Positions 832 to 61,439 of a stretch of DNA of 64,000 nt are shown one piece after another. Origin of the DNA: Patescibacteria group bacterium (GTDB lineage: Bacteria > Patescibacteriota > Patescibacteriia > SG8-24 > DYFX01). How positions within the stretch are numbered: position 1 is the stretch's first letter; the number at the start of each line of letters is the position of its first letter. The notes below the pieces were generated by a model that saw only the letters and a program-made list of their open reading frames with translations, did not search any database and was not told where the DNA came from. The stretch covers positions 518,234-582,233 of the forward strand of contig JBAZZB010000001.1 in assembly GCA_041659045.1 (NCBI GenBank), given 5' to 3'. The position numbers and the translations under genes were made by a program.

Positions 832-2529
832 CTAGCGGTTTTGGAACTTGGCGTTGAACCACAGGTCGACCTGTCTTGCCTTGTTCTCATCCCGCTTGGG
901 ATGTCTGAGAAAGAGCTGGCAGTCTGCCCATTCATCTGCGTGACCAAGCGAGTGCTCGGCCGCGCAGAGGCAGTAGAGGTGCTCGGCGTCGAGGTGTTCG
1001 GCGTCGAGAGGCTTGAGGATCTCGATGGCGAGACCAAGTTTCAGCTTCTCGTACGCTTCGCAACCCTCATCGGCCGTGTGCGCGACGAGCGGTGCCACGG
1101 CGGCATCAGGCGATACCGACGTCGCAAGCGCTACGCCCGCGCGTTCCTCTTGCGTGTCCCGAGGACCCGCGTTCCATGGCGTGCGTCCAGTGACGTACAT
1201 CCAGGTGAACACCGCGCATCCGATCGCCGTCGTGAACATGAGCACCGTCCAGAGCCAGCTGAGCTTGGGCGTCTTCGCAAGCGCGGGCGTTTCCACCGGA
1301 ATCGGTGGAGGGACGCTCGGCACGCGCGGACGTTTCGCAGCAGCCGGAATCGGAGGTGGCACGCTCGGCGAGCGAGGGCGTTGAGGCGGCGGGGGCGTCG
1401 GTCGCGGCTTCACGGTGGTCGTCGCAATGAGCTGGCTGAACGTCAGCCTGTGACGCCCTGAGTTGGGCGTGATCGTCCGCGGCAGCACCGGGAGCGTCGT
1501 CGCCTTGGGTGGCGGCAACTTCTTCGGCGTGTCGCTGACTTTCTTCGTGAGCCCAGCTCTCATGACTCCTTGCAGTCGCACGAGCGCGAGCCGCATCTCG
1601 CTGGCCGTGGCGTACCGACTCTCCGGATTCTTCGACGTCGCCTTGCGGACGAGGTCGGCCAATCCGAGAGGAACCGGTCCGTGCGGCGAAACGATCGGCG
1701 GCAACGGCGCGTTGCACTGCTTCTGGAGGATCTCCATCGTTTGCTGTTGGATCTCCATCGCTGGATTTCCGGTAAACGGCGGTTGTCCTGTCAGGAGCTG
1801 GAACAGCACGATGCCGAGTGCGTAGAGATCCGACCGCTTGTCGATCTTGCCCGCGACGAGGCCGGTCTGTTCAGGCGCCATGTAGTACGGCGAACCGGCA
1901 AGCATGCCTGCTTGGGTCAGTTCGTTCGACTGCATGGTGTCCTTCACGAGACCGAAGTCCAGAATCTTCACGTGACCGTCGGGGGTCAACATGAGGTTTT
2001 GCGGCTTCAAGTCGCGATGGATCATACCCGCGGCATGGATCGCTTCGAGTCCTTGCAGGATCTCGATCGCGAGCCGAACCACTTGCTCAGGAGGAAGAGC
2101 CTTGTCGCCGTCGATCAGCTCGCGAAAGGTGCGGCCTCGGAGATACTCCATGACGAGCAGGTGCTTGCCTGCCATCTCGGAGAACTCGTAGACCGTCACA
2201 ACATTCGGATGCGTGACCTTGGCGGCAGCGCGCGCTTCGACTCGGAACCGCCTGATCGCAGTGAGCTTCGCGGCGGGATCCGTGAGCGGGAGGTTGATCA
2301 GCTTGACTGCGACCTCGCGTCCTAGGTCCGGGTCCGTGGCAAGGTAGACGTCCCCCATGCCACCGGATCCGAGCTTTCGACCGATGAGGTACTTTCCGAT
2401 CTTGAGACCGGTCGTCGGCGTGCGTTCTTCGGGCTTCGGACGTCCGCGATGCCGGAGCTTTTCTCTCAGCGCGCGGTCCGTGTCTGACGGTGTTGCCAAG
2501 GGAGACCTCCTCTTGAGGTTCGGGTGCAA
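832..2529 (-). CDS. Hanks-type Ser/Thr protein kinase with Pro-rich linker, TM helix and small Cys-containing extracellular domain
   Basis: GxGxxG (LGSGGMGDV), VAVK, HRDLKPQN, DFG and APE motifs. Pro-rich segment, then a hydrophobic helix (LSWLWTVLMFTTAIGCAVFTWMYV), then a ~120-aa C-terminal domain with 4 Cys and no PASTA repeats. TTG start at 2527-2529 immediately after an in-frame TGA. Confidence 0.85.
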   Translation of the reverse strand: MHPNLKRRSPLATPSDTDRALREKLRHRGRPKPEERTPTTGLKIGKYLIGRKLGSGGMGDVYLATDPDLGREVAVKLINLPLTDPAAKLTAIRRFRVEARAAAKVTHPNVVTVYEFSEMAGKHLLVMEYLRGRTFRELIDGDKALPPEQVVRLAIEILQGLEAIHAAGMIHRDLKPQNLMLTPDGHVKILDFGLVKDTMQSNELTQAGMLAGSPYYMAPEQTGLVAGKIDKRSDLYALGIVLFQLLTGQPPFTGNPAMEIQQQTMEILQKQCNAPLPPIVSPHGPVPLGLADLVRKATSKNPESRYATASEMRLALVRLQGVMRAGLTKKVSDTPKKLPPPKATTLPVLPRTITPNSGRHRLTFSQLIATTTVKPRPTPPPPQRPRSPSVPPPIPAAAKRPRVPSVPPPIPVETPALAKTPKLSWLWTVLMFTTAIGCAVFTWMYVTGRTPWNAGPRDTQEERAGVALATSVSPDAAVAPLVAHTADEGCEAYEKLKLGLAIEILKPLDAEHLDAEHLYCLCAAEHSLGHADEWADCQLFLRHPKRDENKARQVDLWFNAKFQNR

Positions 2530-2584
2530 TAGTGACTGAACTGGTCAAAGGACATTCCAAAGGCGAATGCCTAGGAAACGGCTG

Positions 2585-2613
2585 ACTTTAGCCCAAAAAG
2601 CCGATATTGTCAA
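2585..2613 (-). promoter_or_regulatory. Sigma70-like promoter for the Ser/Thr kinase gene
   Basis: Minus-strand read TTGACA-N17-TAAAGT. Adjacent perfect palindrome GGGGTATCCCC (2614-2624) lies between the murF stop and the -35 element. Confidence 0.45.
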
Positions 2614-2633
2614 GGGGTATCCCCTTTTTTCGC

Positions 2634-3911
2634 TTAGTTCAGCCAATCCTTGGATTGCCGCACAAGGAGCTCCTCAGCTCGTTCCGGTTCCGCCATCATT
2701 TCTTTAACGATTTTCTCGGTGCGAATGCCTTGCGATCCTTTGATCAAAATCAAGTCTCCAGCATGCGCTCGCTCCTGCAAAAACTGACCCGCTTCTTGCG
2801 AATTTTTGAAGTGAAACACTCGTTCATCAGCCATTCCAGCCTCTCGCGCGCCGCGACAAAGAACGGCGGAGGAAGGCCCAACACCGATCAACCACTCGAT
2901 ACCAGAGTTTGCCGCCAATTGACCCACACGGTAGTGAGCGTCTTCCGTTAGCGCGCCAAGTTCAAGCATGTCGCCAAGCACGGCAACGCGACGACCGTTG
3001 GAACGAAGTGGCAGTCGTTGAAAAGTTTTGAGAGCGAGTTCGGCCGCGCGCGGTGAAGAGTTGTAGGTGTCGTCAATCAGCATCGTGTCCTTAATACCGG
3101 GCAAGACACGCAAGCGCCCCGGCGGAGGTTGATACTCGGCGAGACCGTACGGGATGACGGCCGGATCGACATGGAATGCGAGCGCGACCGAAGCGGCCGC
3201 AAGCGCGGCGTAAACGTTACCGTCACCGAGCGCGTTTGGAAGATTCACCGGATAACGATGTCCATCAACGACCAAATCAAAGCGCGTGAAGACAGTACCG
3301 AGCGCGAGTTCCGGTTCAACGCGTTCCGCTCGCACATTCGCCCCCTCGCCAAAACCGAAGACGACCGCTCGCGGCGCGTCGGATACCAACGCCGCCACGC
3401 GCGAGTCATCACCGTTCAACACGGCAGTTCCATGTTCACGTAGCGCGCGCACGATCATGCCCTCTTCTTTTGCCACACCATCAAGATCACCAAGAAATTC
3501 CGTATGCTCCTCGGCGATGGCGGTCAACACAGAAACGTCGGGCGGCGCAATCGAGGCGAGATACTCCAAGTCGCCGGGGTGATCGGTTGCCATCTCGAGC
3601 ACCAACACGTTGGGGTACGCCTGCGTCGGACCAAAGGCAAGACGAAAACCGCGCCACAGAATCGCTGCCCACGCGAACGGAGAACGTCCTCCAGACTTTG
3701 GCTCGCCAAGAATGGTAAGCGGCACGCCGATTTCGTTGTTGTGATTTTTCACGCTCCCCCGCGTTGAAAACGAACGCGCGAGCGTCGCCGTAACGGCACG
3801 CGTTGTCGATGTTTTTCCTACCGAGCCGGCAACGGCCACAATTTTCGGCGCGTACCGCGAAAGCGTCGTACGCGCCAAAAACGCGAGAACAGCTTGAAGA
3901 TGTTTGATCAT
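2634..3911 (-). CDS. murF: UDP-N-acetylmuramoyl-tripeptide--D-alanyl-D-alanine ligase MurF
   Basis: Mur ligase P-loop AVAGSVGKTSTT and MurF-like C-terminal domain. ATG at 3909-3911, 1 nt after the ftsI stop. The longer ORF-track start (4031) would overlap ftsI and is rejected. Confidence 0.85.
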   Translation of the reverse strand: MIKHLQAVLAFLARTTLSRYAPKIVAVAGSVGKTSTTRAVTATLARSFSTRGSVKNHNNEIGVPLTILGEPKSGGRSPFAWAAILWRGFRLAFGPTQAYPNVLVLEMATDHPGDLEYLASIAPPDVSVLTAIAEEHTEFLGDLDGVAKEEGMIVRALREHGTAVLNGDDSRVAALVSDAPRAVVFGFGEGANVRAERVEPELALGTVFTRFDLVVDGHRYPVNLPNALGDGNVYAALAAASVALAFHVDPAVIPYGLAEYQPPPGRLRVLPGIKDTMLIDDTYNSSPRAAELALKTFQRLPLRSNGRRVAVLGDMLELGALTEDAHYRVGQLAANSGIEWLIGVGPSSAVLCRGAREAGMADERVFHFKNSQEAGQFLQERAHAGDLILIKGSQGIRTEKIVKEMMAEPERAEELLVRQSKDWLN

Positions 3912-3912
3912 A

Positions 3913-5616
3913 TTATTTGCGCGTCGGCGGAACCTGATAATAATCCAGCAGATACTTGGCGATGTCGCCGAAGAGCGGGGCGGCGGTCGACTCAGCGAAC
4001 TGAACGCCTTCCGGACGATCGATACGCACAACCATCACGAACTTCGGGTCGTCGACCGGTCCGAATCCGGCGAACGAACCGATCGTCTGGCCGACTTCAT
4101 ACCCACCACCATCTGCACGCGGAATCTGGGCGGTGCCGGTTTTTCCGGCAATCCAATACCCAGGGACGCCGGCACGAGTACCATGCCCCTTCTCAACGAC
4201 GGCGACAAGCATGCCCGAGAGCAGCTCTGCCGCGCGCTTCGAGATGACACTTCGAACCGTTTTGGGCGCGCGTTTCTCGACGGTGCCGTCGCCATGACGC
4301 ACCTCGTCAACAATGTAGGGTTTCATGAGTGTGCCGTCGTTGGCGATCGCGCCATAGGCCGCGGCAAGCTGCAAAACCGTGACGGTAATACCTTGGCCGA
4401 ACGAACCTGTCGCCGACCAGATATCACCCTTGCGTGATAACGGCTCAATGTTACCGGCGCCTTCGGACTGCAGTTCAATACCCGCTTTCTGACCAAAGCC
4501 AAAATCGCGCACGTAGTTCAAGAATTTCTGCGGGCCGAGCGTGTGCACGACGTCGACCATGCCTGTGTTGAGTGATTCGGCCAACACGGTCGTCATATCG
4601 ACGCGACCGTGCGCCTTCAAATCGGAGTTTCGAATGGTAAAGGGTCCGATCTTGATTTCACCCGGGTCATCAAAAATCGTCGACGGCGTTACTTTTCCAG
4701 AATCAAGGCCGCCAGCCATCGTGATCGCCTTGAAGACAGAACCGGATTCGTACGGCTCAAAAATCGCCGTATTGTTGTAGACGTCGACGTTTTCAATTTT
4801 TCCGTATTCGTTAGGGTCAAAAGTCGGGGCATTGCACATGGCGATCACCCCACCCGTGCGAGGATCAAGAATAACGACACTGCCTTTCAGCGCGTTGAAT
4901 TTCTTCACCCATTCTTCCAGTTTTTTGCAGGCGACATATTGCACCGTGCGATCGATCGTCAGCACGAGATCATCGCCATCCTTCGCGGGCTGTAGCGTAC
5001 GATTACCGACCGCGATGACGCGGCCGCGCGAATCCTTTTCGGATTCAAGATACCCCTGCTCCCCCGCAAGCTCCTTGTCGAACCAACCCTCAATACCGTA
5101 ACGCCCACTCTTTCCTTTATCACTTTCGCCGACGAAACCAAGCATCTGCCCGCCCGTCACACCCTCGGGATAAAAACGAAAATCCTCTTTCGTGAAACCA
5201 ATGCCTTCAAGTTTTAGCGCTTCAATTTTTTCGCGCGTCTCATCGTTCAATTTGCGCGAGAGCACGCGATAGCGCTCCGTAGGACTAGAAATCTTCTCTT
5301 TGAGCTCCGAAGCCTCAATGCCCAAAATCGGCGCCAGCGCCTCAGCGGTATTGATCGGATTCTTGATACGGAACGGTTCCGCAAAAAGGAGATTTAATGT
5401 GCGATTGGTCGCAAGAAGAAACGTTTGATCGCCGGACTGTCGATCGCGGGCATACACCTTCCCGCGTTCTGGAAAGAGGTGTTGAAAAAGATCGTGCTGT
5501 CCCTCAGCCAACGCGACGTAAAAATCGTGCGAGAGCACTTGAATCCGGAAAAGCTGCCCGATGAGAAGCAGCCCAACGACAAAAAAACCGATACGAAGTA
5601 GCCGCAGCCGGCTCAT
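3913..5616 (-). CDS. ftsI: Class B penicillin-binding protein (FtsI/PBP2-type D,D-transpeptidase)
   Basis: N-terminal TM helix and dimerisation domain. Transpeptidase motifs SVFK (SxxK), SLN-like and KTGTA (KTG). Immediately upstream of murF, as in dcw clusters. Confidence 0.8.
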   Translation of the reverse strand: MSRLRLLRIGFFVVGLLLIGQLFRIQVLSHDFYVALAEGQHDLFQHLFPERGKVYARDRQSGDQTFLLATNRTLNLLFAEPFRIKNPINTAEALAPILGIEASELKEKISSPTERYRVLSRKLNDETREKIEALKLEGIGFTKEDFRFYPEGVTGGQMLGFVGESDKGKSGRYGIEGWFDKELAGEQGYLESEKDSRGRVIAVGNRTLQPAKDGDDLVLTIDRTVQYVACKKLEEWVKKFNALKGSVVILDPRTGGVIAMCNAPTFDPNEYGKIENVDVYNNTAIFEPYESGSVFKAITMAGGLDSGKVTPSTIFDDPGEIKIGPFTIRNSDLKAHGRVDMTTVLAESLNTGMVDVVHTLGPQKFLNYVRDFGFGQKAGIELQSEGAGNIEPLSRKGDIWSATGSFGQGITVTVLQLAAAYGAIANDGTLMKPYIVDEVRHGDGTVEKRAPKTVRSVISKRAAELLSGMLVAVVEKGHGTRAGVPGYWIAGKTGTAQIPRADGGGYEVGQTIGSFAGFGPVDDPKFVMVVRIDRPEGVQFAESTAAPLFGDIAKYLLDYYQVPPTRK

Positions 5617-11415: not shown

Positions 11416-13197
11416 TCAGTTTGGAAGCAGCAAAATTTCTTTTTGCTGCCAGTTGCTGTCCATGTCAACCGTCCCGACGTAATCCTGGTAACCGGCGCGC
11501 GATGCCATAACGTCATACGTGCCGGCTCCCAGGTTCGTGAACAAAACCTGACCGGGCGGCGTACAGGCCGATGTGTAGGTAAAACTTACGTCTGAGACAT
11601 TCGGCGTCGAGCTAGCATCTTCCGTAGAAAGAAACGCCTTGTACCGCATATAGCGGTTTCCGCTGTGGCTCGCGTGAATATTTGTGTTCGATGCCGCGTA
11701 ATACGTGGAAGACGTGCCGTCCGGACCGGTAAAAAGCCACGTGGCGTTGTCGTTATTGCTTGCGAGCTGAAATCTGAGGCTGTTTACGCCCGCTGCTGGA
11801 GGCTGATCGTTCGGCAACCATTGCATCTGGTAGAAGTTGCTGGTTGATCCCGTGTCAAAACTCGACGACTCAAGTTCGCCCGCGGCAACATAGCCGCTAC
11901 CCGGATCCTTCAAATGAAGGTCGCCGTTGGGATTCTGCGTCTCGAGGAAACCATCACTCGAAAAATACGCTGTCGGGTCGATAAAATCGGTTTGTCCGCT
12001 CGTACCCGACCAATCCGTCTGACGCATGAAGCCTCGGTTCGTGATGAGCGTCACGTCCGTGCCACCTTGCACCAACTGCACGGTCGTATCGGTTAACGGC
12101 AATTGCGTTGAAGCATCTTTTACGGTCACGAGCACACTGCGTGGCGCTTTCGCACTGACGATCAGCTGGAAATTTTGGTTGGTGTTCGGAGCAAGTGCGA
12201 GCGGCAGAAGCGGCACGGCACCGGCCAGATCGTAGCCAGCGTCAGTCAAAGACGCCTGATAGCTGTCCCACTCAAGCGTCGGCAGCGTCAACAATCCGGT
12301 TCCGTCCGTGGAAAAGGTGTTGGAGTACTTCAGTTGATCCGGCGTTGTGCCGTCGAGTTTTGAACCGACAAGCGAAAAATCAATGTTAGGAACCGGCGTG
12401 CAGGTATCAGTAACACTCGCAACATTCAGAGCGCTAACGCGATCAATCGCGAAACTCATCGCGGTCACCGATTGAAGCGCGACCGTTCCGTGCGGCTTGG
12501 CCGGATTCACGATCACGCTGTTTGGTGCATACGTTCGATCGGTTGAATAGCCGTCCTTCGTCACCGTCACGTAATACTGGTTGATACCCGGCGGCACGTC
12601 GACAAGCTGCAACAGGCCGGCCGCGTTGGTCACATCGTTGATCGTAAAAGACGGCGTCGCCGAGGCGTTTGTGACTGTGACGTTCGCGTCAGAAACCGGT
12701 TGCCCGTTAGCGTCAAGCGCTTGAATGAAGAGCGCGCCGTTCGTTGAAGATGTTTCAAGACTTTTCGGAGCAATCGTCGTCGTGAACGTCGTGGGAGAAT
12801 ACCCGATGCACCCATCGCAACTTACGACGAGTTCATACAGTTTGTAGTCGGCTGGTGACGTGTCGTTTGGCGAGCCTCCAAGCGTTCCATCAAAGATATC
12901 ATCAACATTACGAACCGTGCTCGTCAGTAAAAATACAATGCCGCTGCGAGTAACCGTCTGCTGATATGGGATTTTTCCAGGGGGAAGACCGCCGAGAATA
13001 CCGACGTTCACGTAGCTCATGTTTCTCGCGAATTCAAACTGTTCATTGGCCACGGCGGCGGCCATGACCTGAATGCGAGAAAGGCGTACCGCACGGTACG
13101 CGGCCGTCATCGCTTGATACAACGCCACCGTCACAAGCAAAAACACGGCCGTGCCGACGATCGTTTCAACAAGCGTAATGCCTCGGGGATGTCTCAT
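11416..13197 (-). CDS. Large prepilin-type N-terminal domain protein (593 aa pseudopilin-like)
   Basis: MRHPRGITLVETIVGTAVFLLV (G|ITLVE) followed by a long S/T/N-rich beta-rich domain. 4-nt overlap with the ATPase-like gene. Confidence 0.65.
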   Translation of the reverse strand: MRHPRGITLVETIVGTAVFLLVTVALYQAMTAAYRAVRLSRIQVMAAAVANEQFEFARNMSYVNVGILGGLPPGKIPYQQTVTRSGIVFLLTSTVRNVDDIFDGTLGGSPNDTSPADYKLYELVVSCDGCIGYSPTTFTTTIAPKSLETSSTNGALFIQALDANGQPVSDANVTVTNASATPSFTINDVTNAAGLLQLVDVPPGINQYYVTVTKDGYSTDRTYAPNSVIVNPAKPHGTVALQSVTAMSFAIDRVSALNVASVTDTCTPVPNIDFSLVGSKLDGTTPDQLKYSNTFSTDGTGLLTLPTLEWDSYQASLTDAGYDLAGAVPLLPLALAPNTNQNFQLIVSAKAPRSVLVTVKDASTQLPLTDTTVQLVQGGTDVTLITNRGFMRQTDWSGTSGQTDFIDPTAYFSSDGFLETQNPNGDLHLKDPGSGYVAAGELESSSFDTGSTSNFYQMQWLPNDQPPAAGVNSLRFQLASNNDNATWLFTGPDGTSSTYYAASNTNIHASHSGNRYMRYKAFLSTEDASSTPNVSDVSFTYTSACTPPGQVLFTNLGAGTYDVMASRAGYQDYVGTVDMDSNWQQKEILLLPN

Positions 13198-14321
13198 AGA
13201 CGCATGAGTTCTTCCGGCGCGATCGCACCGGAGAGGACCTTCCGCACCCCATCATCAAGCAGGGTTGACGGACGACGTTCGGGCACGAGCAAGTCTCTCC
13301 ATTCGAATACGGCGAGCTGTCCACGATGCCCCGTGTACCGGCAGCGGGCACATTTCGTGCCGCGCTCAAACGTTTGCGTTCTGTTCTTTTCAAACACGCG
13401 ACGCACGAGCGCGCGCGGCCAAATGACCGCCGCCTCTTCTCCTGTCATGGTATCGCGTCGACGGCAATCGGGACAGACGCGCCGCACCAAACGCTGAAGC
13501 AGCACCCCCGACAGGACGCGCGCTAGCATTTTCGGCTCAACACGCAGTTCAAGAAGCCTGTTCAAAGCGCCAGAAAGAGTTTTACCTTCAACGACAACGA
13601 TCACAAGCCGGTGTTCCGCTGCGGAAACCGCAAGAGCGGCGGACGTTTCCTCGCGCAACGAACCAAGACCAATAACGCTTGCGCCGCGCGCGATAGCCGC
13701 TCGCAGCAAAGACGAGGTTGTACGCCCAGCAACAGGGTCGACCATTTCCTGATCAACGCCATGCAGCTCGGCGAGCGACACCGTCTCAATCAGAGAGGTC
13801 TGCCTACGAAAAACATCGACTTCTTCTAAAAGCGCGTAGAGCGTCGTTGTGAGACCTGATCGTCGCGGTCCCGCGAGCAGCAGGAGTCCGGATGTTTTTT
13901 TCAAGCAACGCTCAAGCCCACCCCGTTGCACAGAGGAAAGTCCCAGATCCGCCAAACTCGGTCGTGGCGTACGGAAACGTACGACGACTTTTTCTCCTTC
14001 AAGTACCGGAACGACGGAGAGACGACTCTCCACCTCAACGCTGTCAACGACGCGTCGTAACGGATTTTCCTGGCAAGAAAAATCGGCGTCTTCGCGCAAA
14101 CGCGCGAGTATCTTCAGATGACGCACGAATCGCACGTGCGACTCCCTCGCTTGATGGAACCATTCGTGCAGCAAACCGTCGCGCCGAACACGCACGACCG
14201 CATCCTTCGCTGAAGGCTCTAAAATGAGTTCGGTGGCTCCGGAATCCGCAGCGTCACGCAAAAGCAGATCGACGGCATTGTCGATCTCAGTTTCTTTCAA
14301 AATGTGATGTGGTATCGGCAC
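13194..14321 (-). CDS. PilB/GspE-family ATPase homolog with degenerate catalytic motifs (predicted pseudo-ATPase)
   Basis: Walker A reads GPRRSGLTTTLYA (canonical GPTGSGKTTTLY); Lys to Leu, codon CTC at ~13852-13854. Asp-box and Walker B are degenerate (VIGLGSLRE instead of IMVGEIRD). Tetracysteine Zn motif CPDC...CARC is retained. N-terminal GspE N domains are absent. Confidence 0.7.
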   Translation of the reverse strand: MPIPHHILKETEIDNAVDLLLRDAADSGATELILEPSAKDAVVRVRRDGLLHEWFHQARESHVRFVRHLKILARLREDADFSCQENPLRRVVDSVEVESRLSVVPVLEGEKVVVRFRTPRPSLADLGLSSVQRGGLERCLKKTSGLLLLAGPRRSGLTTTLYALLEEVDVFRRQTSLIETVSLAELHGVDQEMVDPVAGRTTSSLLRAAIARGASVIGLGSLREETSAALAVSAAEHRLVIVVVEGKTLSGALNRLLELRVEPKMLARVLSGVLLQRLVRRVCPDCRRRDTMTGEEAAVIWPRALVRRVFEKNRTQTFERGTKCARCRYTGHRGQLAVFEWRDLLVPERRPSTLLDDGVRKVLSGAIAPEELMRL

Positions 14322-19865: not shown

Positions 19866-19896
19866 CAAAAGAAAAACCCTCTCAAGGAGAGGGTTC
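19866..19896 (-). terminator. Rho-independent terminator after the class A PBP gene
   Basis: Minus strand: CCCTCTC-ctt-GAGAGGG followed by TTTTTCTTTTG. Confidence 0.5.
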
Positions 19897-22800
19897 AGTC
19901 GAAGGCGCCTTCGCCGAAGTCGGCGTTGGGCGCGTCCAGATAGGCTTCCGGCGTCTTCCCCCGCTGGAACGGAAGGAGACCGGTACGGCCGTTGTCGGTC
20001 GTACCGCGGCGAAGGAGCGTCACGTCGTCCGGGATCGGGAAATCCCGAGGCGGCGTCGAGAACGGCTGCCCGTCAGGAGGAACAGGAAACGCCGATTCCA
20101 TGAAGGCGATCCAGATCGGGAGCGCCACGACACCACCCGTCGCCTCTCTGGCGATCGGTGTGGGCGTCTTGCGTCCAACCCAGGTACCAACGACGAGATC
20201 GGACGTGCCGCCCATGAACCAGGCGTCCCAGAAGTTGTTCGTCGTGCCGGTTTTACCGACAACGGGTCGACGCAGCTTCTTGGCGCGCGTACCGGTTCCG
20301 AACTCGACGACACCGCGCAAGAGTTCCGTCATGGCGTAGGCGTCACCCGAAGGTACTGCCTGCGTCTTCGGACGCTCAGGAGCCATGTAGATGGTGCGCA
20401 ATTCAGAATGACCGGACGAGTTCCGGACGAAGGACTTGACCGACTTCACGAAGATGCCGGGCGCGTAGCCTTCTTTCTGCGTTGCCATCATACGTCCGTT
20501 CGAAAGAATCGTGGCGTAGCCAGCGGTATGTTCCCACAGCGTGAGCTCGGGAGTACCGACGGCCAAGGGGAAGACCCGAACGATCGGCGAGCGAATGCCG
20601 AGCGCGCGCATCGTGCCAATCGCCTTGTCGAGCCCGACTTCAACGAGAAGTCGAACAGACACGGAGTTGAGCGACTTCGCCAGCGCCGTGACCAGGTCAA
20701 CAGTGCCGTAGAAGACGCGCGTCGTTTTGGGACCGGAGTAGTTGGTCGGACACCACGGACCGGACGCGGTCGAAAGACAGATAGGCGCGTCGAGCTCCGT
20801 GGAGACAACGGTCTTTCCGTTTACGAGCGCCGTCAGGTAGACGTACGGCTTGATCGACGAACCCGTTTGGCGCCGCGCTTGCGTGGCGTTATTGAACTGG
20901 TTCTCGTTCCAATCGTAGCCGCCAACAAGTGCTCGGAGTTCTCCACTTTGTGGGTCGATGGCGACGATCGCGGCTTGAAGCGCTTCGGGATGATCCTTCC
21001 CACCCGTGCGGCGAGCGGTCAATGCGAAACGTTCGGATGTGCCGTCGTCGTTCGTTCTTGTTTCGATGCGCACCGTCAGCAGGTCGCCGACGATGAGCTT
21101 GCGTCCCGACTTGGCTCGTTCCCACTTCGCAACGCGATCCACGTCATCCGCATCGAGCGGAAACGCGTAGCCACGCACGCACAATGTGATCGAAGAGCGT
21201 TCGCGCGCGATGACACGGGCGTTCGCTTCGAGTGCACCGTCGGCGACCCAGCCTGAAGGATTCTCACAGACGGCGTCCGCGTCCTTGTCGTGTCCTTCCG
21301 GACCGGCAAAGCCGAGACGTCGTTCGAGATCGAGCAGACCGAATCGTTCGGCAGCCTGCGCCTTGCGCTGGAGCGTGAGATCGAACGTCGTATCAATGAT
21401 CAGACCCTGTTTGTAGACCGCGTCATAGCCGAACGTGCGTTCGACGAACTTGCGGGTTTCCTCGCAGGCGTACGGCGCGGTTGCCATATTGAAGGCGTGC
21501 GCGCGCTTGATGAGCACGATTGGCGCACGAAGCGCTTCCTCGTGCTGCGCCTTCGTGATCGCGCCCGTCTCGAGCATGCGCCCGAGCACGTAGCGCTGAC
21601 GCACCTTGGCGCGGTCGAAATGCCCGTCAGGCGAATCGAGCGAAGGCGCCTTAGGCAAGCCAGCCAGGATCGCCGCTTCAGCCACGGTGAGATTCTGTAC
21701 GGACTTTCCGAAATACGTCTCTGACGCGGCTTCGACGCCGTACGCGTTTTTGCCGAGGTAGACGTGATTCAGATAGACCTCGAGGATCTTTTGTTTGGCC
21801 TTGTGACGTCCGTGCTTCGAGGCCAACTCGCGTTCGAGCCGAACAGCCAGGAAGAACTGCTTGAGCTTGCGTTCGATCGTCGGACTCGAATCCTTGAGCA
21901 CCACCTGCTTGATCACCTGCGCGGTGATCGTCGAGGCGCCCTGTCGCGCTTCCCCATGGTTGAGGTTATGCAGACCGGCGCGAATGATGCCTTGCGGATC
22001 GAGTCCATCATGTTCCCAGAAGGTCTTGTCTTCCGAGGCGATGAAAGCTTCTTGCACGTGACGCGGGATGTTTTCGAGGTCGGCCCACGTCCGATTCTCG
22101 AGGGAGAAGCTGCACATCACCTGGTGATTGCGATCGAAGACGACCGACGAAACGACCGGTTGATAGCTTTCCACACTCGAAAGATCGTCCGACATGTCGT
22201 CGACAAACGCTTCAGCGAAGTGCGTGGCGATCGCGCACGTCAGAAAGGTTCCGAACGCGAATCCCGTGCAGAGCATCCGCAGGAAGACGAAACGTTCGCC
22301 CGCCTCGCCGACGCGTCCGTCCGGAGCCGTGAACTCCACACACTTTGGCACGCGCTCGATGGTGTACATCGGGATCGTTCCAGAGAACCGCTTGAAGTCC
22401 AAAAGGAGCTCGGGTGGAACCTTGCGAATCGTCAGCACTTTGCGCGGCGCGGCGCGGCGCAAATACGGAGGACGCGCGAGGAGCGCGAAGATCGTGAACA
22501 CGATTGGTGGAAGAATCGCGAGCGTGAGCGGGCGTTGGAGCGGCGCGAGAATGAAATCAAGCGCCCACGGCAAACCCTCAAACCACGACTCAGGAAACGA
22601 CAACCAATTGCGCCACAGCAAACTTTCGACCATGGCGTAGAGCCAGAGATCGATGACCAGAATGCCGAGGAACCACAGGACGATGCGAACAACATTGAAC
22701 ACGCCGGTATAGCCGGGCGACACTCTCCAGGTCCGCAAGCGCGCGATGACGCGCTCTGGCGGATTCGAGAGGAACATCGCTCCGAGAACACCGAGGATAC

Positions 22801-23161
22801 CAATCGCTTCAGAACCAAGCCCCAGCCAGACAAGCTTGCCGGAACGCAGGATGTTCCAAAGCGCGATACCTACGGCGAGTATGACCGAAAGCCCGAAGGT
22901 GATACGACGGAACAGACGAAACTTCCAGAGGAAGATCGCCAACCGAGCGACCCAACTTCCCACGCGCTTCAACGACCTCCAGAGCGTATACAGCACCGGG
23001 AGGACGGCAAAAGCGAGAAGGAAAGCGATCCACAACGGCGTGCCGAGACGATCCGAGGTGACCAGGAGGGCCAGCGGAATCGCCAAGAGAACGACGTAGC
23101 CGATCATGACCTTGAACAGGAACACGCCACGCTCGAACTGCCGCTTGAGCCATTGCAACAT
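19895..23161 (-). CDS. Class A penicillin-binding protein (GT51 transglycosylase + transpeptidase) with a ~330-aa polytopic N-terminal membrane domain
   Basis: GT51 motifs EDKTFWEHDG and GASTITAQ. Transpeptidase motifs SSIK (SxxK), SLN and KTGTT. Multiple hydrophobic helices in residues 1-330 before the GT51 domain. Confidence 0.85.
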   Translation of the reverse strand: MLQWLKRQFERGVFLFKVMIGYVVLLAIPLALLVTSDRLGTPLWIAFLLAFAVLPVLYTLWRSLKRVGSWVARLAIFLWKFRLFRRITFGLSVILAVGIALWNILRSGKLVWLGLGSEAIGILGVLGAMFLSNPPERVIARLRTWRVSPGYTGVFNVVRIVLWFLGILVIDLWLYAMVESLLWRNWLSFPESWFEGLPWALDFILAPLQRPLTLAILPPIVFTIFALLARPPYLRRAAPRKVLTIRKVPPELLLDFKRFSGTIPMYTIERVPKCVEFTAPDGRVGEAGERFVFLRMLCTGFAFGTFLTCAIATHFAEAFVDDMSDDLSSVESYQPVVSSVVFDRNHQVMCSFSLENRTWADLENIPRHVQEAFIASEDKTFWEHDGLDPQGIIRAGLHNLNHGEARQGASTITAQVIKQVVLKDSSPTIERKLKQFFLAVRLERELASKHGRHKAKQKILEVYLNHVYLGKNAYGVEAASETYFGKSVQNLTVAEAAILAGLPKAPSLDSPDGHFDRAKVRQRYVLGRMLETGAITKAQHEEALRAPIVLIKRAHAFNMATAPYACEETRKFVERTFGYDAVYKQGLIIDTTFDLTLQRKAQAAERFGLLDLERRLGFAGPEGHDKDADAVCENPSGWVADGALEANARVIARERSSITLCVRGYAFPLDADDVDRVAKWERAKSGRKLIVGDLLTVRIETRTNDDGTSERFALTARRTGGKDHPEALQAAIVAIDPQSGELRALVGGYDWNENQFNNATQARRQTGSSIKPYVYLTALVNGKTVVSTELDAPICLSTASGPWCPTNYSGPKTTRVFYGTVDLVTALAKSLNSVSVRLLVEVGLDKAIGTMRALGIRSPIVRVFPLAVGTPELTLWEHTAGYATILSNGRMMATQKEGYAPGIFVKSVKSFVRNSSGHSELRTIYMAPERPKTQAVPSGDAYAMTELLRGVVEFGTGTRAKKLRRPVVGKTGTTNNFWDAWFMGGTSDLVVGTWVGRKTPTPIAREATGGVVALPIWIAFMESAFPVPPDGQPFSTPPRDFPIPDDVTLLRRGTTDNGRTGLLPFQRGKTPEAYLDAPNADFGEGAFD

Positions 23162-23233
23162 CTGGTGCCCCCTCTGCTGAAGGACGCGTTTGCCTACGAT
23201 TTTCCGGAAACACGTGTCCCCGGAATAAACCTC

Positions 23234-23263
23234 TTATATACGCCCGGGAACCCCCTCTGTCAA
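23234..23263 (-). promoter_or_regulatory. Sigma70-like promoter for the class A PBP gene
   Basis: Minus-strand read TTGACA-N17-TATATA. GAGGGGG RBS 7 nt before the ATG. Confidence 0.5.
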
Positions 23264-23266
23264 TGT

Positions 23267-23297
23267 AAAAAGACCCCTGTCGAGTCGACAGAGGCCG
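23267..23297 (-). terminator. Rho-independent terminator after the TPR lipoprotein gene
   Basis: Minus strand: CCTCTGTCGA-ctc-GACAGGGG followed by TCTTTTT. Confidence 0.5.
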
Positions 23298-23300
23298 TAT

Positions 23301-25427
23301 TCATTGGAGTTGGACGCGGTAGATGAGTCCTTCATCAATCACGAATGTCCGGACGTTCGTACCGAGGCATTCCACCTTGGCCGACTTGGCGACATGGCAC
23401 AGGCGATGCTCGCCGATTGGAGTTGAAAACTGCGGCAGCGCCCCCGTACCCACTCGCGGCGGTACAGAAGGCTCGAGCGCGCGACCGTCGAGCACGAGCA
23501 CGATTTCTTCCTTCGAGAGATTCTCGACGAAGAACGTGACGTTGTCGACCGCGTCGTTTGGCACGACCGGCGAGATACCAGAGTTGTCGCGCTTGGGCGG
23601 CTCAGGCATCGTTACGTACCGCTTGTCGTTCCGCTCGCGGATCTCTTCGATCTTTGCCATGCCGATCATCTGCGGATCGAGCGTGCAATCGTATTCGACA
23701 AGCATGCGCTTGAAGGTGCCGTCGTACGCCGTTCGCATCTCACGGTAGTCGCGCAAGGATTTCTGCTCGTAGAGCAGGAGGTCTTCGGCGAGCGCGAGTT
23801 CGTCGGGCGTCAGGAGCAGTCCCCAATCATCCTTCAACAAGGTATGAATGGCGTCGACGCGCTTTTGCAGCTCTCTGCCGTGCGCTTCGTGCTCGGTACC
23901 GCGCTCGCGCGCGAGGAGATAGTCGCTTCCGGCCAGGCCGTCGGCGCACGCTCCTTCTTTCTCGTGCGTGAGGAGCCAGGTGCCATCGTTGACGGCTTCT
24001 TGAAACTCCGCACGTTTGACTTCCATACGATCGCGCATCGCGTCCGTGACGAGGATGCCGGCGGCGAACTTGCCAGTACCGTCATCCTCAGCCGCTTTGC
24101 GAATCTTGCGAAGCTTGGCGTCGTTCGGAAACCGGGAAAGGCCGAGGTCGTAGGCAGCGAAGGCTTCGGCCGAGTGACCGAGTGCCCGTTCGCAGGCGGC
24201 GAGCAGGTAGAGCGCGTCGAGATTCTCCGGCTCGGCCGAAATGATCACGCGCAATTCGATCACAGCATCGGCGTAGCGACGTTCGCTGGCGTACAAGCCG
24301 ATCAGCGCCCGACGCGTATCGAGGTTGTCGGGATCGAACGTGCGGCTCATCTCATACCGAGCGATCGCGTCGTTCACTCGACCAAGCTTGGCATACGCCT
24401 CGCCGAGCCAATAGTGGATGAGCGGATCTTCGGGACGGAGCGCCGCGGCCGTTTCGAGGCTCGCGCGCGCCGAATCATACTGTCCCGTACCGATCTCGAC
24501 GCGACCGTACGCGACCAGAGCGCGGACGTCATGAGGATCGTCCTTGAGTGCTTCTTGGTAGTGCATGCGCGCCTTCTCGGGACGATCGATCTGCCAGAGC
24601 AGCCAGGCATAGAGACGCCGTGCGATCTGATAGCGCGGCCAAATTCTGACAGCGTTCTCCGCGTAGGCCAATGCCGACTTCATCGACTCTTCCTCGTTGC
24701 CGAGGAGCAGCGCTCGATAGCTGCGAGAAAGGTTGATGAAGGAAACAATGTCCGGCGTCTGTGGATGCGAAAGCGCTTGCACGTGCGCGTCAGGCAGGCG
24801 AATACCTGCCTTGGCGAACGTCTTCGCGATTCCGCTTCCGAGCATGACGTGCACCGTGTCACCCTGCACGCCTGGGCGTTCGGGCTTTGGCACGTCTCGC
24901 GAAGAAGCATAGATCATCTTCTCTTCCGTGACGCGATCGATCTCGCGCAAGCGGTCGGTTTCAACTTCGAACAACACGACGCTCAGAGACCAGCGCTCGA
25001 CGCGACCGCTGTAGTAGCCGGTCAGCACGTGCGTGGCACCCGCGCGTTTCGCCGCCGCATGAATGGCGGCGAGCGAAATATCGTTCGGCTTTTCCGCGAC
25101 AAGCTTGGCCGATTCTTCGGGCAGCACGTGCGGCCCAACGACGACGTCGAGCGCGTACCCCTCGTCAGCCAACGCTTTCACAGCATCAGCGTTCTGGGAG
25201 AGCTCTTCGAGTCGCGCGTTCGCGAACAGCGCCAAACCAAGCGAGAAGTAGTCCATCCCCTTCTGATCGACGTCGGAGAACGGAGCCACAAACACGCGCA
25301 CCGTCTTGAGCGCCGGCGGCGCGGTAACGGGCAGGACCGTCGTCTTCTCGACAACGACCTTGGCAGAACTCTTCGAGCCACAGGCGATGGATACGAAACA
25401 CAGCCAAGCCAAAAAGAGCGTTTTCAT
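23301..25427 (-). CDS. TPR-repeat lipoprotein/secreted protein (708 aa)
   Basis: N-terminal signal with Cys (LCFVSIAC). Multiple TPR-like helical repeats in the central region. GGGAGGT RBS. Confidence 0.65.
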   Translation of the reverse strand: MKTLFLAWLCFVSIACGSKSSAKVVVEKTTVLPVTAPPALKTVRVFVAPFSDVDQKGMDYFSLGLALFANARLEELSQNADAVKALADEGYALDVVVGPHVLPEESAKLVAEKPNDISLAAIHAAAKRAGATHVLTGYYSGRVERWSLSVVLFEVETDRLREIDRVTEEKMIYASSRDVPKPERPGVQGDTVHVMLGSGIAKTFAKAGIRLPDAHVQALSHPQTPDIVSFINLSRSYRALLLGNEEESMKSALAYAENAVRIWPRYQIARRLYAWLLWQIDRPEKARMHYQEALKDDPHDVRALVAYGRVEIGTGQYDSARASLETAAALRPEDPLIHYWLGEAYAKLGRVNDAIARYEMSRTFDPDNLDTRRALIGLYASERRYADAVIELRVIISAEPENLDALYLLAACERALGHSAEAFAAYDLGLSRFPNDAKLRKIRKAAEDDGTGKFAAGILVTDAMRDRMEVKRAEFQEAVNDGTWLLTHEKEGACADGLAGSDYLLARERGTEHEAHGRELQKRVDAIHTLLKDDWGLLLTPDELALAEDLLLYEQKSLRDYREMRTAYDGTFKRMLVEYDCTLDPQMIGMAKIEEIRERNDKRYVTMPEPPKRDNSGISPVVPNDAVDNVTFFVENLSKEEIVLVLDGRALEPSVPPRVGTGALPQFSTPIGEHRLCHVAKSAKVECLGTNVRTFVIDEGLIYRVQLQ

Positions 25428-40985: not shown

Positions 40986-43900
40986 TCATGAGGCAGTTTT
41001 GAGTTCAATATCGTCAGCAATGAAGACGGGCTCTTTCTCGTGGGTGAAATCAATCTCTTTCGTGCGTGCCGCTTGGTATCCCGCGCGATCAGCCGTCAGG
41101 AAATAGCGGTTCTGACCGGCCAGGAAGGCGTAGCGTCCGCGTGCATCGGTCACCTGGGCTTCAAGCACTTTCTTGTACGCGGATTCGACAATACGAACGA
41201 CCACTTGCTTCACGGGCTTCTTCTGCTCATCGGAAACCGTTCCCCAGCTCTTAGGACGCCGCCCTCTGGCCAGGCGCATGAAGAGAAGCATGAAGGCGAG
41301 CTGTGTCATGAGTGCAATCACCTGCTCCCAACGAGGCGTTGCGGCATAGCTTGCAAGCGCAAGTCCGGGACCGATCGACGCGACGGCCCATTGCACGCGC
41401 AAGCGCGAGGAAGCCGCGAGAATGTCGATGTCCGTGCGCGTTTCACCCACAGGTTCGAGCGGCACGTTTTTGGCGATCATACCTTCCGGAGTTTCGATCG
41501 GGCCACCAAGGTGCAGGTCAGAGAAGGGGCCGTCGGCCACGCCGCTGATCGTTCGGTTCGGAGGAAAGGCAAAACCGGGCTTCTGTACTTCAAGCAGGTA
41601 GCTGCCGGGCTGTGGCAAGAAAAGATAGCGACCATACCGATCGGTGACGCGCGTTGAAACCGTTTTTTGCGTGACAGGGTCGACAAGACGGACGACAGCA
41701 AGATCCACCGGCAGCTTCGTGCCGACGTTATAGATGGTGCCGTAAGCCTTGCGACGGCGACGATCGAGCAGCGCGAGCGGTTGCGTAAAGAGGAACATCG
41801 CGTATCGCGCGTAGCCGGCAAAGCCCACAGCCGAAGTCGTCGCGACTGCGACCGCCGCAGTTGTAGCTGGGGTCACGACAACGTCGTTCGTTGTTTGCGC
41901 CACTGCGCTTCCGCGAATGGCTTTCATATTGTCGCGTACCGATCGCGCGATAGCGCCGATGACAGGCGTGTTCTGTGTCGCCTCCGCGAGACGATCAAGA
42001 ATCGGCGTTGCCGTAACGGCGTTCAATGGTCGCGCGATCCATTCAAGCAACGTCAGTCTTGTCTCTGTTCCGCTCGTCGTCCCGCTTCCAGACGTCGGTA
42101 CCGTTGGCGGTGTCGTTCCGGTCGTCGGACGTTCGGGATCGGTTCCGACAGGTGTCGGTTGCTCGGTTGTCGGTGGCACCGTAGGCTCTGACGATACTGG
42201 AGGTGCCGGTGTCGTTCCTGGTGTGGGGGCTGTACTTGGCTCAACAGGTGCCGTCGGCTGAGCAACTACCGGAGGAACGGTCGGTACCGTCGGTGGCAGC
42301 GTAACGATCGGTTCCACAGGCGTTACGGGAAGTTGTACAACATCCGTCGTCTGTTCAGAAATCGTCGTCGAGAGCCCATCCGCGGTGATGACGGCGCGAT
42401 TAAAAAGCGACCTCGCGCCGGGTAACACCCGCACGTGCACGCTGACATACCGGCGCATGCTTGCGGCAAGAGAACCAAGATTGTATGTCGCGGTACGCGT
42501 CAACGAATCAAAAGCGGCGTCATCTGTATCGGCGAGGTCCGTCAGAATCACACCATCAATCGACAAAGATGATCCAACGTATGACGTGCCGGGTGGAATT
42601 GTTTCTGCTACCACAACATTTCGCGCGGTCTGGCCGCCGACGTTCGACACGTCAATACGATAGGTAACGATATCACCAGTCTTCGGTTCGGGCGTACCGC
42701 TCGAAAATTCCAAAGAAGACACGTTCACGCCGACGCGCACCTCAGCCAGTACAGCAGCATCCTCTGGCACAGTCGTAGGGGGTACAACGGGCGGCGTCGA
42801 TGTTGTTGAGCCCGGCGCTCCTGATCCGCTTTGCGCTATTGTGAACGAAGCATCGCTCACGTCCGTCGCCAAAATCGTGTCACCTCCAGCGAGGGCTTCA
42901 GCGCGAATGCGCGCGGAATCAGCGGCCACGCTCGGCACCATCCAGGCGTAGACGCCCGCGGAAGGACTCACATTCGAAGCAATCACCGCGTACGTACTCC
43001 CGTTATCTACGGAGTACGAGAGTCGGACGTTCTGCACCTGAATACCCTGCGTCGTGAAAAATACGTTATATGTCGATCCACCCGCGAGCAGTTCGCTGCC
43101 GTTCGGCTGGCCAACCACAATGGAAGGCGTCGGGTTACCACCGCCTCCGCCTCCTCCCCCACCACCTCCGCCTGAAGCCGTAATCGAAAAGTCTGCGTTC
43201 GCGGTATCGCTCGCAAGTGTTACGTTGTTCGCGTCTTGTGCCTCGATTTTGATGCGCGCTGTGGTCGTCGTGATGTTGTTGACCGTCCAGGAATACGGCG
43301 ATGCTGCGTCGGATGCAGTAACAAGCGTCGGGAACGTGGAGCCCGAGTCCGTAGAAAGCGTGATGCGGTAGTGATCAACCAAACCAGCATTCGTCCACGT
43401 GATCGACGAAGAATCGCCGCCCGTCAAACTTCCTCCGCCATTCGGTGCCGTCACGGTTACTGTCGCCGCACCGTCAGAATCGGCGATCATTTGCACGCGT
43501 GTTTGTGAAACCGTGTTGACGGACTGGAAAGCCGTCACAATACCAGCGTCACCATTGGAGACAGCCGTCGGAATATCTTCAGCAAAACCGGCGCGAGCCG
43601 CAACAACGATTCCGTTTGCGGTCCACATCGCCGTGCCAGTTGAGTTCAGACGTTGTGCGTACACGTCGCCACCAGCCTCCGTTCTTTCATCCTTCCAAGC
43701 CGCTACAACACCGGCGCTATTGTCTGTTGCAATACTGAATTGCGCCCCTTGGTTATCAGCAGCATTGCTCACGACCTCGCCGTTCGCTGTCCACTGCGCG
43801 ACGCCGGAAGCATCGAGTCGTTGCGCGTACAGATCGCTCGTGACGCCTCCGCGCATATCTTTCCACACCACGATCGACCCGGTATCCGAAGCGATGACTT

Positions 43901-46277: not shown

Positions 46278-46347
46278 GCGTGTATACAGAGGTCTCTTCA
46301 CAGCATGCAGTGTACCACTTTTAGGCAAATCCTTCTTGTTCGAACCT

Positions 46348-57939: not shown

Positions 57940-58947
<1,008 letters not shown>

Positions 58948-60949: not shown

Positions 60950-61028
60950 AGAGTCAGTATAACACGCGCACCTTGACAGGAGGCCATGTTCGTGGTCATC
61001 TGATGCCGGACAAACACATGGAGGAACC

Positions 61029-61439
61029 GTGTCCACAAAAAGAAAAGTGCACGAGAGACGATTTCGCAGGAAACAGGCGGCAGCGGCGAAGAAGGCCCGG
61101 CCCTGGTACATCGCCTGTACGATCCTGACTGTTCTGCTGTTCGTTGCCACTATCGGCTTCGCTCCCGCCTGCAAGAAGCGAGAGGAGTACAAGCCTCTCA
61201 CGCCGGAAGAGGAGCGTTCACAGCTCGAAGCGCGTCGGGAACACTTCAACGCGATCAGCTCCGACATCACGTATTTCCGAGAAGCGCGCAGCAACCTCTG
61301 CTTCGCCTACATCTTCCGAACATTCGGCCTTAGCCAATACGCGGTCGGCGGCCCGGCAATGGCATCCGTCGACTGTGCCAAGGTCGAACACCTGCTCATC
61401 AACAGCGCACCGCGCGCCGAATCCCCAACCGCTCCCTGA
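61029..61439 (+). CDS. Hypothetical protein with one TM helix (only plus-strand gene in this cluster)
   Basis: GGAGGA RBS followed by a GTG start. Strong GC3 bias. Basic N-terminus, then a TM helix. Confidence 0.5.
   Translation: MSTKRKVHERRFRRKQAAAAKKARPWYIACTILTVLLFVATIGFAPACKKREEYKPLTPEEERSQLEARREHFNAISSDITYFREARSNLCFAYIFRTFGLSQYAVGGPAMASVDCAKVEHLLINSAPRAESPTAP

Follow-up and report, generated by a model that had tools for sequence, protein, structure and literature searches.

A class A penicillin-binding protein with a conserved polytopic N-terminal domain in a lineage of Patescibacteria group bacteria

The class A penicillin-binding proteins (PBPs) are textbook single-anchor enzymes. 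In the 64,000-nucleotide stretch of DNA from a Patescibacteria group bacterium analysed here (contig JBAZZB010000001.1, positions 518,234 to 582,233; hereafter the window), one open reading frame (ORF) encodes a class A PBP that does not have this bitopic architecture, as seven hydrophobic helices, six additional transmembrane (TM) helices and the canonical anchor, precede its GT51 glycosyltransferase domain. Judged from its domains and motifs the protein is a catalytically intact PBP1A-type peptidoglycan synthase, and its first 290 residues (hereafter the extension) almost certainly constitute a real, translated and conserved N-terminal fusion. We regard this undescribed, lineage-restricted polytopic domain on a bona fide PBP1A-type synthase as new: no description of the architecture, or of its N-terminal domain, was found in the literature, nor was any paper found that contains the identifiers CP129476, GCA_030583805 or cMAG.20, and public records of the relatives read just ‘transglycosylase domain-containing protein' or ‘penicillin-binding protein 1A'. 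The identical public protein, P0001, is entered as ‘MAG: transglycosylase domain-containing protein [Patescibacteria group bacterium]'. As to function, our proposal is a tentative one, whose chances we put a little below even, that the extension acts as a membrane scaffold fused in cis and as a docking or regulatory platform for the synthase.

The assignment of the enzyme rests on its catalytic region. The GT51 motifs E377-D378-x-x-F-x-x-H-x-G and R431-K432...E443 are conserved, with E377, D378, F381, H384, G386, R431, K432 and E443 unchanging in 66 aligned sequences, and the transpeptidase motifs S768xxK771, S830xN832 and K970-T971-G972 are invariant in the alignments. Between the two catalytic domains a beta-rich insertion lies where PBP1A-type enzymes have their OB/ODD-like domain; the Pfam scan gave no match to PCB_OB in the protein. 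The NCBIfam model TIGR02074 (PBP_1a_fam) covers residues 356-1024 with 491.8 bits, just below its cutoff of 508.75, and the nearest structures in the PDB, by sequence and by fold, are the PBP1a proteins of Pseudomonas aeruginosa, Acinetobacter baumannii and Haemophilus influenzae. These PBP1A-type enzymes (A. baumannii 3UDF, P. aeruginosa 4OON, H. influenzae 5U2G; TIGR02074) share with the extended PBP the catalytic motifs of both domains, the beta-rich insertion between them and one anchor helix right before the GT51 stalk. They lack, however, the ~290 N-terminal residues that hold six TM helices and a cytoplasmic unit. The first-pass annotation, which had proposed a class A PBP fused to a polytopic N-terminal domain, is therefore borne out by a single ORF with intact GT51 and transpeptidase motifs.

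It could be argued that the PBP begins near its anchor, the 290 N-terminal codons belonging to another gene, being open by chance or reflecting a wrongly called start. Indeed long spurious ORFs are common in a genome of ~59% GC, many lying on the opposite strand here, and internal ATGs occur at codons 265 and 296. It should be emphasized, however, that the ORF of 1088 codons contains no stop or frameshift, that no other in-frame start lies between its ATG and the in-frame stop that precedes it, and that Met296 is not conserved; the separate gene that had been envisaged at the outset, betrayed by an internal start or a frameshift, was thus not found in the ORF. GC content at the three codon positions of residues 1-290 (0.60/0.44/0.745) is like that of the rest of the gene and of its neighbours, the third-position value being of coding type. 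The ratio of non-synonymous to synonymous substitution (dN/dS), estimated between the window and two orthologous loci, is below 0.5 throughout, with 0.30-0.40 in the extension and 0.09-0.19 in the catalytic domains, values that are approximate, dS being ~0.8-0.9. By these estimates the extension is under purifying selection that is 2-3 times more relaxed than that on the catalytic domains.

The relatives of the protein point the same way. A full-length search returned ~30 orthologs of 1070-1097 residues and 49-82% identity, each aligned over 100% of the query, from many independent assemblies that include the closed 1.167-Mb chromosome CP129476.1, which was also the sole match when a genome collection was searched with the single sequence. 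Whether orthologs carry the same fusion, a question posed in the first-pass annotation, is thereby answered. Across these orthologs amino-acid conservation runs from residue 1 (MxxLKR) and takes in the motifs FLWKFRxFR, WNxxxSG, PPER, DxWLYAxVE, NW and ALLARPPYLRRAAPR and the conserved E118. Shine-Dalgarno-like sequences, read by eye, lie ahead of the ATG in all five loci compared, and together with the conserved MxxLKR they support the annotated start. In an exhaustive HMMER search of 1.84 billion representative proteins, a profile built from 23 N-terminal domains found seven matches at E<=1e-3. Each of them is a class A PBP, a fragment of one or a frameshifted piece, and the extension was found neither alone nor fused to another domain. 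A start near the anchor would, in addition, leave a gap of ~1 kb, while the promoter and the Shine-Dalgarno sequence sit correctly for the long form. A separate gene or chance ORF, to which we give hardly any weight, is effectively excluded.

Kyte-Doolittle hydropathy of the fused protein places strong TM segments at the positions listed in Table 1, with a polar linker (residues 231-290) between TM6 and the anchor and with amphipathic or interfacial helices at ~68-80 and 191-209. The earlier count of ~8 helices in ~330 residues was thus close, the six extra helices and the anchor making seven to which the amphipathic segments are added. In the alignments TM7 coincides with the single TM helix of ordinary-length PBP1As, and R295 is unchanging in all 28 sequences of alignment A1, ordinary-length PBP1As included. 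Averaged over 23 orthologs, the net charges of the N terminus and successive loops are +2.2, +0.4, +5.7, -0.4, +4.2, -1.4 and +7.9. This alternation, read by the positive-inside rule, argues for a cytoplasmic N terminus followed by six helices and the anchor, which puts GT51 outside the cell, as required. The loops described in the first-pass annotation as rich in arginine and aromatic residues are readily recognized, as mean Lys+Arg contents in the cytoplasmic loops of the same orthologs are 5.7, 6.0 and 12.9, and the cytoplasmic face has ~28 such residues. In loop 62-86, which has the charge of +5.7, L78, W79, R82, F84 and R85 are conserved, and the extracytoplasmic loop 181-210, with -1.4, contains a mean of 4.6 aromatic residues. 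After TM6 the protein continues into the cytoplasmic PPYLRRAAPR motif, in which R235, R236 and R240 are invariant, and then into the small basic unit, for which the AlphaFold2 (AF2) models predict strands at 240-247, 266-273, 275-278 and 284-287 and a helix at 250-260.

Residues 1-340 match no family in Pfam-A or NCBIfam at E<=1. The extension profile matched no chain in the PDB, its best E value of 0.32 belonging to an unrelated protein, and a Foldseek search with the extension returned nothing at E<=0.001. The first-pass interpretation of the region as a SEDS-like, flippase-like or transporter-like module finds no support in these searches, in which the profile retrieves PBPs only, and it fits poorly with the existence of short-form relatives that have two of the helices. 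Indeed the extension shows neither a match to the FTSW_RODA_SPOVE family nor the ten-TM fold of SEDS proteins (FtsW/RodA), and neither sequence nor fold similarity to MurJ/MOP, Amj, DedA/UptA, DUF368/PopT, BacA or PAP2. A Lipocone/VanZ-type domain was also considered and rejected, as Pfam gave no VanZ or related match and no passage on such an architecture was found in the Lipocone paper. An origin by internal duplication of hairpins was likewise rejected: the match between hairpins A and B consists of overlapping residues, and that between B and C is a weak ‘AxxLAxPP' similarity (E = 0.012, probability 3.5%). Orphan status, suggested by an empty word-indexed search with residues 1-291, was set aside in view of the ~30 extension-bearing orthologs recovered with the full-length query.

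In a neighbour-joining tree of the catalytic region, built without bootstrap, all extension-bearing PBPs group together as a single clade, separated by a long stem from ordinary PBP1As, and the extension thus appears to be monophyletic and confined to one clade of small-genome bacteria labelled ‘Patescibacteria group' by NCBI. Within this clade the number of extra helices varies, at about 2, 4 or 6. Three proteins of ~890 residues (P0033, P0124 and P0125) have only the TM5-TM6 hairpin, a PPY(L/F) motif, a small cytoplasmic unit and the anchor, and P0031 and P0034-36 are intermediate forms; TM5 therefore belongs to the core retained in all extension-bearing relatives. Accretion from two to six helices was considered as a history for the domain and not adopted, being indistinguishable from reduction in a tree that is unbootstrapped and in which the long-extension P0036 is basal. 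Ordinary PBP1As have a cytoplasmic tail, KRFSxLR, to which the GERFVxxR segment of the extension can be aligned, and this suggests that the membrane module was added upstream of a pre-existing PBP1A tail. Among the 122 retrieved relatives in which a catalytic Glu motif could be located, 73 have one TM helix before it, and multi-helix N termini on class A PBPs are unusual, not unique. P0059, P0066 and P0072, ordinary PBP1A-type proteins from other lineages, have two extra N-terminal helices whose sequence, by eye, looks unrelated to the extension, and in P0089 and P0090 a Cys-rich, zinc-ribbon-like segment precedes a long cytoplasmic N terminus that is probably disordered. Elaboration of the N terminus seems to have arisen several times in class A PBPs.

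Conservation is unevenly distributed over the long-form proteins. Mean column identity is 0.48-0.61 in TM1-5, 0.72-0.73 in TM6, the most conserved helix of the extension, 0.89 in residues 231-240 and 0.81-0.82 in the GT51 and transpeptidase domains, so that PPYLRRAAPR is the best conserved stretch of the entire protein. This distribution bears on the possibility that the hairpins merely stabilize membrane insertion or self-association, for instance in the membranes, built of scavenged lipids, that have been reported for such organisms, and neither dock a partner nor gate the enzyme. The plastic helix number, the independent gain of two helices by the unrelated P0059, P0066 and P0072, and the modest conservation (0.48-0.60) and relaxed dN/dS of TM1-4 are all consistent with passive anchoring or oligomerization of this kind. 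A mere anchor would, however, hardly be expected to contain a motif, PPYLRRAxPR, more conserved than the catalytic domains, invariant polar residues in loops (N185-W186 and D281-G282-R283) and a cytoplasmic unit predicted to be folded, and one TM helix is enough for other PBP1As. We therefore consider passive anchoring unlikely, although it deserves to be kept in mind.

In the scaffold and docking model that we prefer, a short ancestral cytoplasmic tail of PBP1A has been extended N-terminally in one lineage by a module whose six TM helices form three hairpins, with the N terminus in the cytoplasm and a strongly basic cytoplasmic face, and by the alpha/beta unit that leads into the anchor. The TM5-TM6 hairpin, with the aromatic outer loop that joins its helices, would lie packed against the anchor beside the membrane-embedded face of GT51, and the position of the synthase in the bilayer would thereby be fixed. 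On the cytoplasmic side the PPYLRRAxPR motif, together with the basic unit, would recruit a partner, itself cytoplasmic or membrane-bound, by which the enzyme is positioned or gated. TM1-4 may be a later or more plastic elaboration. The extension would thus be a cis counterpart of polytopic partners that act in trans, such as RpdA/YufK with PBP4 and CozE with PBP1a, and of the arginine mini-domains that serve GpsB.

Each of these parallels has its limits. In Bacillus subtilis RpdA, a DUF5366 protein with 5 TM helices, is required for membrane retention of PBP4, against whose anchor helix it is predicted to pack, in contact with the GT domain (PMC12767342), which matches the role proposed here for the extension. 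RpdA, however, is a separate protein acting in trans in another phylum, and no similarity to it was found for residues 1-340 at Pfam E<=1, the presence of a DUF5366 model in Pfam-A being assumed from the domain name in the preprint. The membrane protein CozE occurs in a complex with pneumococcal PBP1a and is needed for the septal localization of that enzyme (PMC7593971). The likeness of the CozE/CozEb-PBP1a system of Streptococcus pneumoniae to the extended PBP lies in a multi-helix membrane protein associated with a class A PBP, but CozE acts in trans, is unrelated in sequence to the extension and works with MreCD; nothing found here ties the extension to MreCD, although the window does contain an MreB gene. 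GpsB binds conserved membrane-proximal arginines in the cytoplasmic mini-domains of class A PBPs (PMC6335420). These mini-domains of Gram-positive class A PBPs (SRxxR(R/K), TRxxYR, RSxxxR) resemble PPYLRRAxPR in being short, membrane-proximal, arginine-containing and conserved among orthologs; they are located, however, at the protein N terminus, while the motif of the extended PBP differs in sequence and follows TM6.

Structure prediction is broadly compatible with the proposed packing. The full-length AF2 model has a mean predicted local distance difference test score (pLDDT) of 84.3 and a predicted TM-score (pTM) of 0.67. In TM5-TM6 the pLDDT is 68-83 when the domain is modelled alone and 83-89 (88-89 for TM5) in the full-length model, which includes the anchor and GT51; in TM1-4 it is ~10 points lower in the full-length than in the isolated-domain model. 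These shifts agree with packing of TM5-6 on the anchor or on GT51.

Several observations nevertheless weigh against the scaffold and docking model. The shifts in pLDDT are the sole basis for the contact between TM5-6 and the anchor, and the AF2 model of the isolated extension is of low global confidence (pTM 0.39). Both models also render residues 82-132, comprising TM3 and TM4, as a single continuous helix, which conflicts with the topology derived from loop charges and which we attribute to a shallow alignment and to the low global confidence of the isolated-domain model. The rate of evolution of the extension appears to be 2-3 times that of the catalytic domains, PPYLRRAxPR differs from the SRxxR(R/K) motif of GpsB-binding proteins, and no homology of the extension to RpdA/DUF5366, CozE or any other family was detectable in Pfam, NCBIfam or the PDB, so that the functional reading is drawn by analogy only. 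In addition, N103, S107, E118 (kept in 22 of 23 orthologs), D171, Y175 and N185-W186 are near-invariant polar residues located in the outer half of the membrane; the conserved E118 and D171 and the cluster of N103/S107/N185-W186 hint at the binding of a ligand or an ion, and a pure scaffold leaves this polar and acidic cluster unexplained.

Two further explanations start from these outer residues. In the first the long-form extension would hold an outer-leaflet pocket (N103, S107, E118, D171, Y175, N185, W186) that binds, possibly via a cation, the pyrophosphate-sugar head of lipid II or released undecaprenyl pyrophosphate, and that feeds substrate to, or removes product from, the adjacent GT51 site. 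Such handling of the lipid carrier makes specific the suggestion of a lipid II presenting domain in the first-pass annotation. It is consistent with the concentration of conserved polar and acidic residues on the side on which GT51 works (the outer half of TM3-TM5 plus the outer loop) and with the tethering of the extension beside the anchor helix, but we judge it quite improbable. The interpretation given in the first-pass annotation is upheld in part, no support having been found for its SEDS, flippase or transporter component. That the extension is a previously unknown domain for handling the lipid carrier, acting in cis to channel substrate or product at the GT51 site, has if anything a slightly smaller chance. 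If true, it would physically couple polymerization to carrier recycling in a minimal-genome bacterium. In the second explanation E118 and D171 would sense protons, cations or the membrane potential and switch GT51 allosterically through the anchor. Two near-invariant carboxylates do lie inside TM helices, the module runs directly into the anchor, and there are signs that expression of the gene is also controlled at the mRNA level. A membrane-embedded sensor is, however, a purely inferential construct, short-form relatives lack the acidic pair and no homology to known sensor domains is apparent, and this explanation is very unlikely.

The signals that flank the gene are collected with the other features in Table 1. 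The first-pass annotation had noted a strong dedicated promoter, TTGACA-17-TATATA, and this sequence is present exactly as described. The element TTGAC(A/G)-17-TATATA recurs ~100 nt before the ATG, with identical spacing, in three of the orthologous loci (L002, L004 and L006), which supports a dedicated promoter, although its -10 element matches TATAAT at just 4 of 6 positions; an automated promoter scan passed over it as the scan demands a T at position 6 of the -10 hexamer. By eye, a hairpin with a T-run can be read at the same spot as the upstream terminator in the orthologous intergenic sequences. With terminator-like hairpins on both sides and a promoter between them, the PBP gene is, by these signals, a separate transcription unit. 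Its leader also contains potential hairpins. A strong one begins ~10 nt past the -10 element, within the ~70-nt stretch that separates this element from the ATG (23162..23234), and a hairpin is found at the same place in the orthologous leaders compared (L002, L004, L006 and L007), where its sequence is partly or wholly different; that of L006 has a 13-bp stem, CCTTGTTTTCAGG/CCTGAAAACAAGG. Folding z-scores of the leaders range from -1.5 to -3.7. The Shine-Dalgarno sequence GAGGGGG ends 6 nt ahead of the ATG, and in the leaders of the window and of L004 it is predicted to pair with an upstream UCCUUC in a second hairpin. The leader hairpins could stabilize the 5' terminus as a stem-loop, serve as an operator palindrome or control translation.

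Table 1. Features of the extended PBP gene, its product and its flanking sequences (window coordinates)
Feature	Position	Strand	Remarks
Complete coding sequence, extended class A PBP	19895..23161	-	1088 aa + stop
N-terminal extension, residues 1-290	22292..23161	-	six TM helices + cytoplasmic unit
TM1, residues ~14-36	23054..23122	-	after conserved basic N terminus M-x-x-LKR (L5, K6, R7)
TM2, residues ~42-61	22979..23038	-	followed by cytoplasmic Arg/aromatic loop 62-86 with FLWKFRxFR motif
TM3, residues ~87-104	22850..22903	-	ends in conserved outer turn WN103xxxS107G
TM4, residues ~111-132	22766..22831	-	membrane-embedded E118 in outer half
TM5, residues ~158-180	22622..22690	-	W163, D171, W173-L174-Y175
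Extracytoplasmic aromatic loop, residues 181-210	22532..22621	-	invariant N185-W186 and P190
TM6, residues ~211-230	22472..22531	-	P219, F222, T223, A226, A229
Membrane-proximal cytoplasmic motif PPYLRRAAPR, residues 231-240	22442..22471	-	
Small basic cytoplasmic alpha/beta unit, residues 241-290	22292..22441	-	ends in DGRxxxAGERF
Canonical PBP anchor helix TM7, residues ~291-313	22223..22291	-	
GT51 glycosyltransferase domain, residues 352-529	21575..22108	-	Pfam Transgly E = 5.1e-57
Beta-rich inter-domain insertion, residues ~623-720	21002..21295	-	AF2 strands 644-715
Transpeptidase domain, residues 731-977	20231..20971	-	Pfam Transpeptidase E = 6.6e-16
Terminator-like hairpin at PBP stop codon	19874..19896	-	10-bp stem + T-run
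Shine-Dalgarno GAGGGGG and UCCUUC	23168..23184	-	GAGGGGG 23174..23168, UCCUUC 23184..23179; predicted to pair
5'-leader inverted repeat/hairpin	23202..23225	-	TTCCGGGGACAC/GTGTTTCCGGAA; just downstream of -10 element
Promoter-like element TTGACA-17-TATATA	23235..23263	-	TTGACA 23263..23258, TATATA 23240..23235; read directly
Terminator-like hairpin + T-run ending upstream TPR gene	23272..23296	-	11-bp stem, 7 GC pairs
TPR protein upstream of PBP	23301..25427	-	708 aa; Pfam TPR families

The genomic context of the extended PBP is also conserved. In every extension-bearing locus examined the order is TPR protein, PBP, type I phosphodiesterase, DUF6938 protein, glycoside hydrolase-like protein and PAS histidine kinase, an arrangement that the locus of an ordinary PBP1A relative does not share; an Smr gene lies within the block in the window and in L001/L002 and not in the other loci. 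The TPR gene adjoins the PBP gene upstream in all of these loci (L001/L002, L004, L005, L006 and L007), those of the distant short-form homologs (L005, L006 and L007) included. The N terminus of its product, MKTLFLAWLCFVSIAC, looks by eye like a lipoprotein signal peptide, and the protein may be considered, by inference only, a candidate partner of the PBP. In Escherichia coli the TPR-containing lipoprotein LpoA activates PBP1A and binds its ODD insertion. The resemblance here consists of a TPR protein, lipoprotein-like by eye, encoded right upstream of a PBP1A-type enzyme with an inter-domain insertion. The protein shows, however, generic TPR similarity alone, for which reason its identification as an LpoA homolog was rejected, a terminator and a promoter separate the two genes, and organisms of the lineage with the extended PBP probably have no outer membrane.

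Downstream of the PBP block and beside the PAS histidine kinase there is a conserved cluster resembling type IV pilus genes (11416..14321, minus strand), with a T2SSE/PilB-type ATPase (13194..14321) and then a 593-aa protein of prealbumin-like fold; an N_methyl (pilin-like) protein follows in L002 (21845..22453), and a response regulator is also present in L001/L002 and L004. Elsewhere in the window a second cell-wall cluster (832..5616, minus strand) encodes a class B PBP (3913..5616, PBP_dimer + Transpeptidase), a Mur ligase (2634..4031) and a 565-aa Ser/Thr kinase (832..2529). The class B PBP gene suggests that the organism also has a synthase built on such an enzyme, and the kinase could act on the cytoplasmic parts of envelope proteins. 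An MreB/Mbl homolog (57940..58947, minus strand; Pfam E = 1.3e-131) implies an organization of the elongasome type in this small genome, and MreB is a possible candidate for the class of cytoplasmic partner that the basic face of the extension might engage. A further gene encodes a 778-aa DUF4012 protein (58958..61294, minus strand; Pfam E = 3.2e-29). Two giant ORFs, both on the minus strand, encode proteins of 1856 aa (40986..46556), with a match to DUF11 repeats only, and of 1656 aa (47844..52814), with no Pfam match; these are probably large surface or adhesin proteins, and a 491-aa protein with CarboxypepD_reg-like domains is encoded between them.

Class A PBPs are increasingly found to depend on dedicated partners, among them LpoA/B, CozE, MacP, GpsB and, most recently, the polytopic RpdA. 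The organisms that contain the extended PBP are uncultivated, the domain is restricted to one clade and its function is inferred. Within these limits, a membrane domain not described before, with a cytoplasmic motif of very high conservation, is defined here in a lineage about whose cell envelope hardly anything is known. A natural, conserved protein in which a polytopic module is joined to a class A PBP would lend evolutionary support to the view that intramembrane partners acting on the anchor and on GT51 are a general means of controlling these synthases, and the extended PBP would offer a natural single-chain system for structural work on the interface between a class A PBP and its membrane partner.

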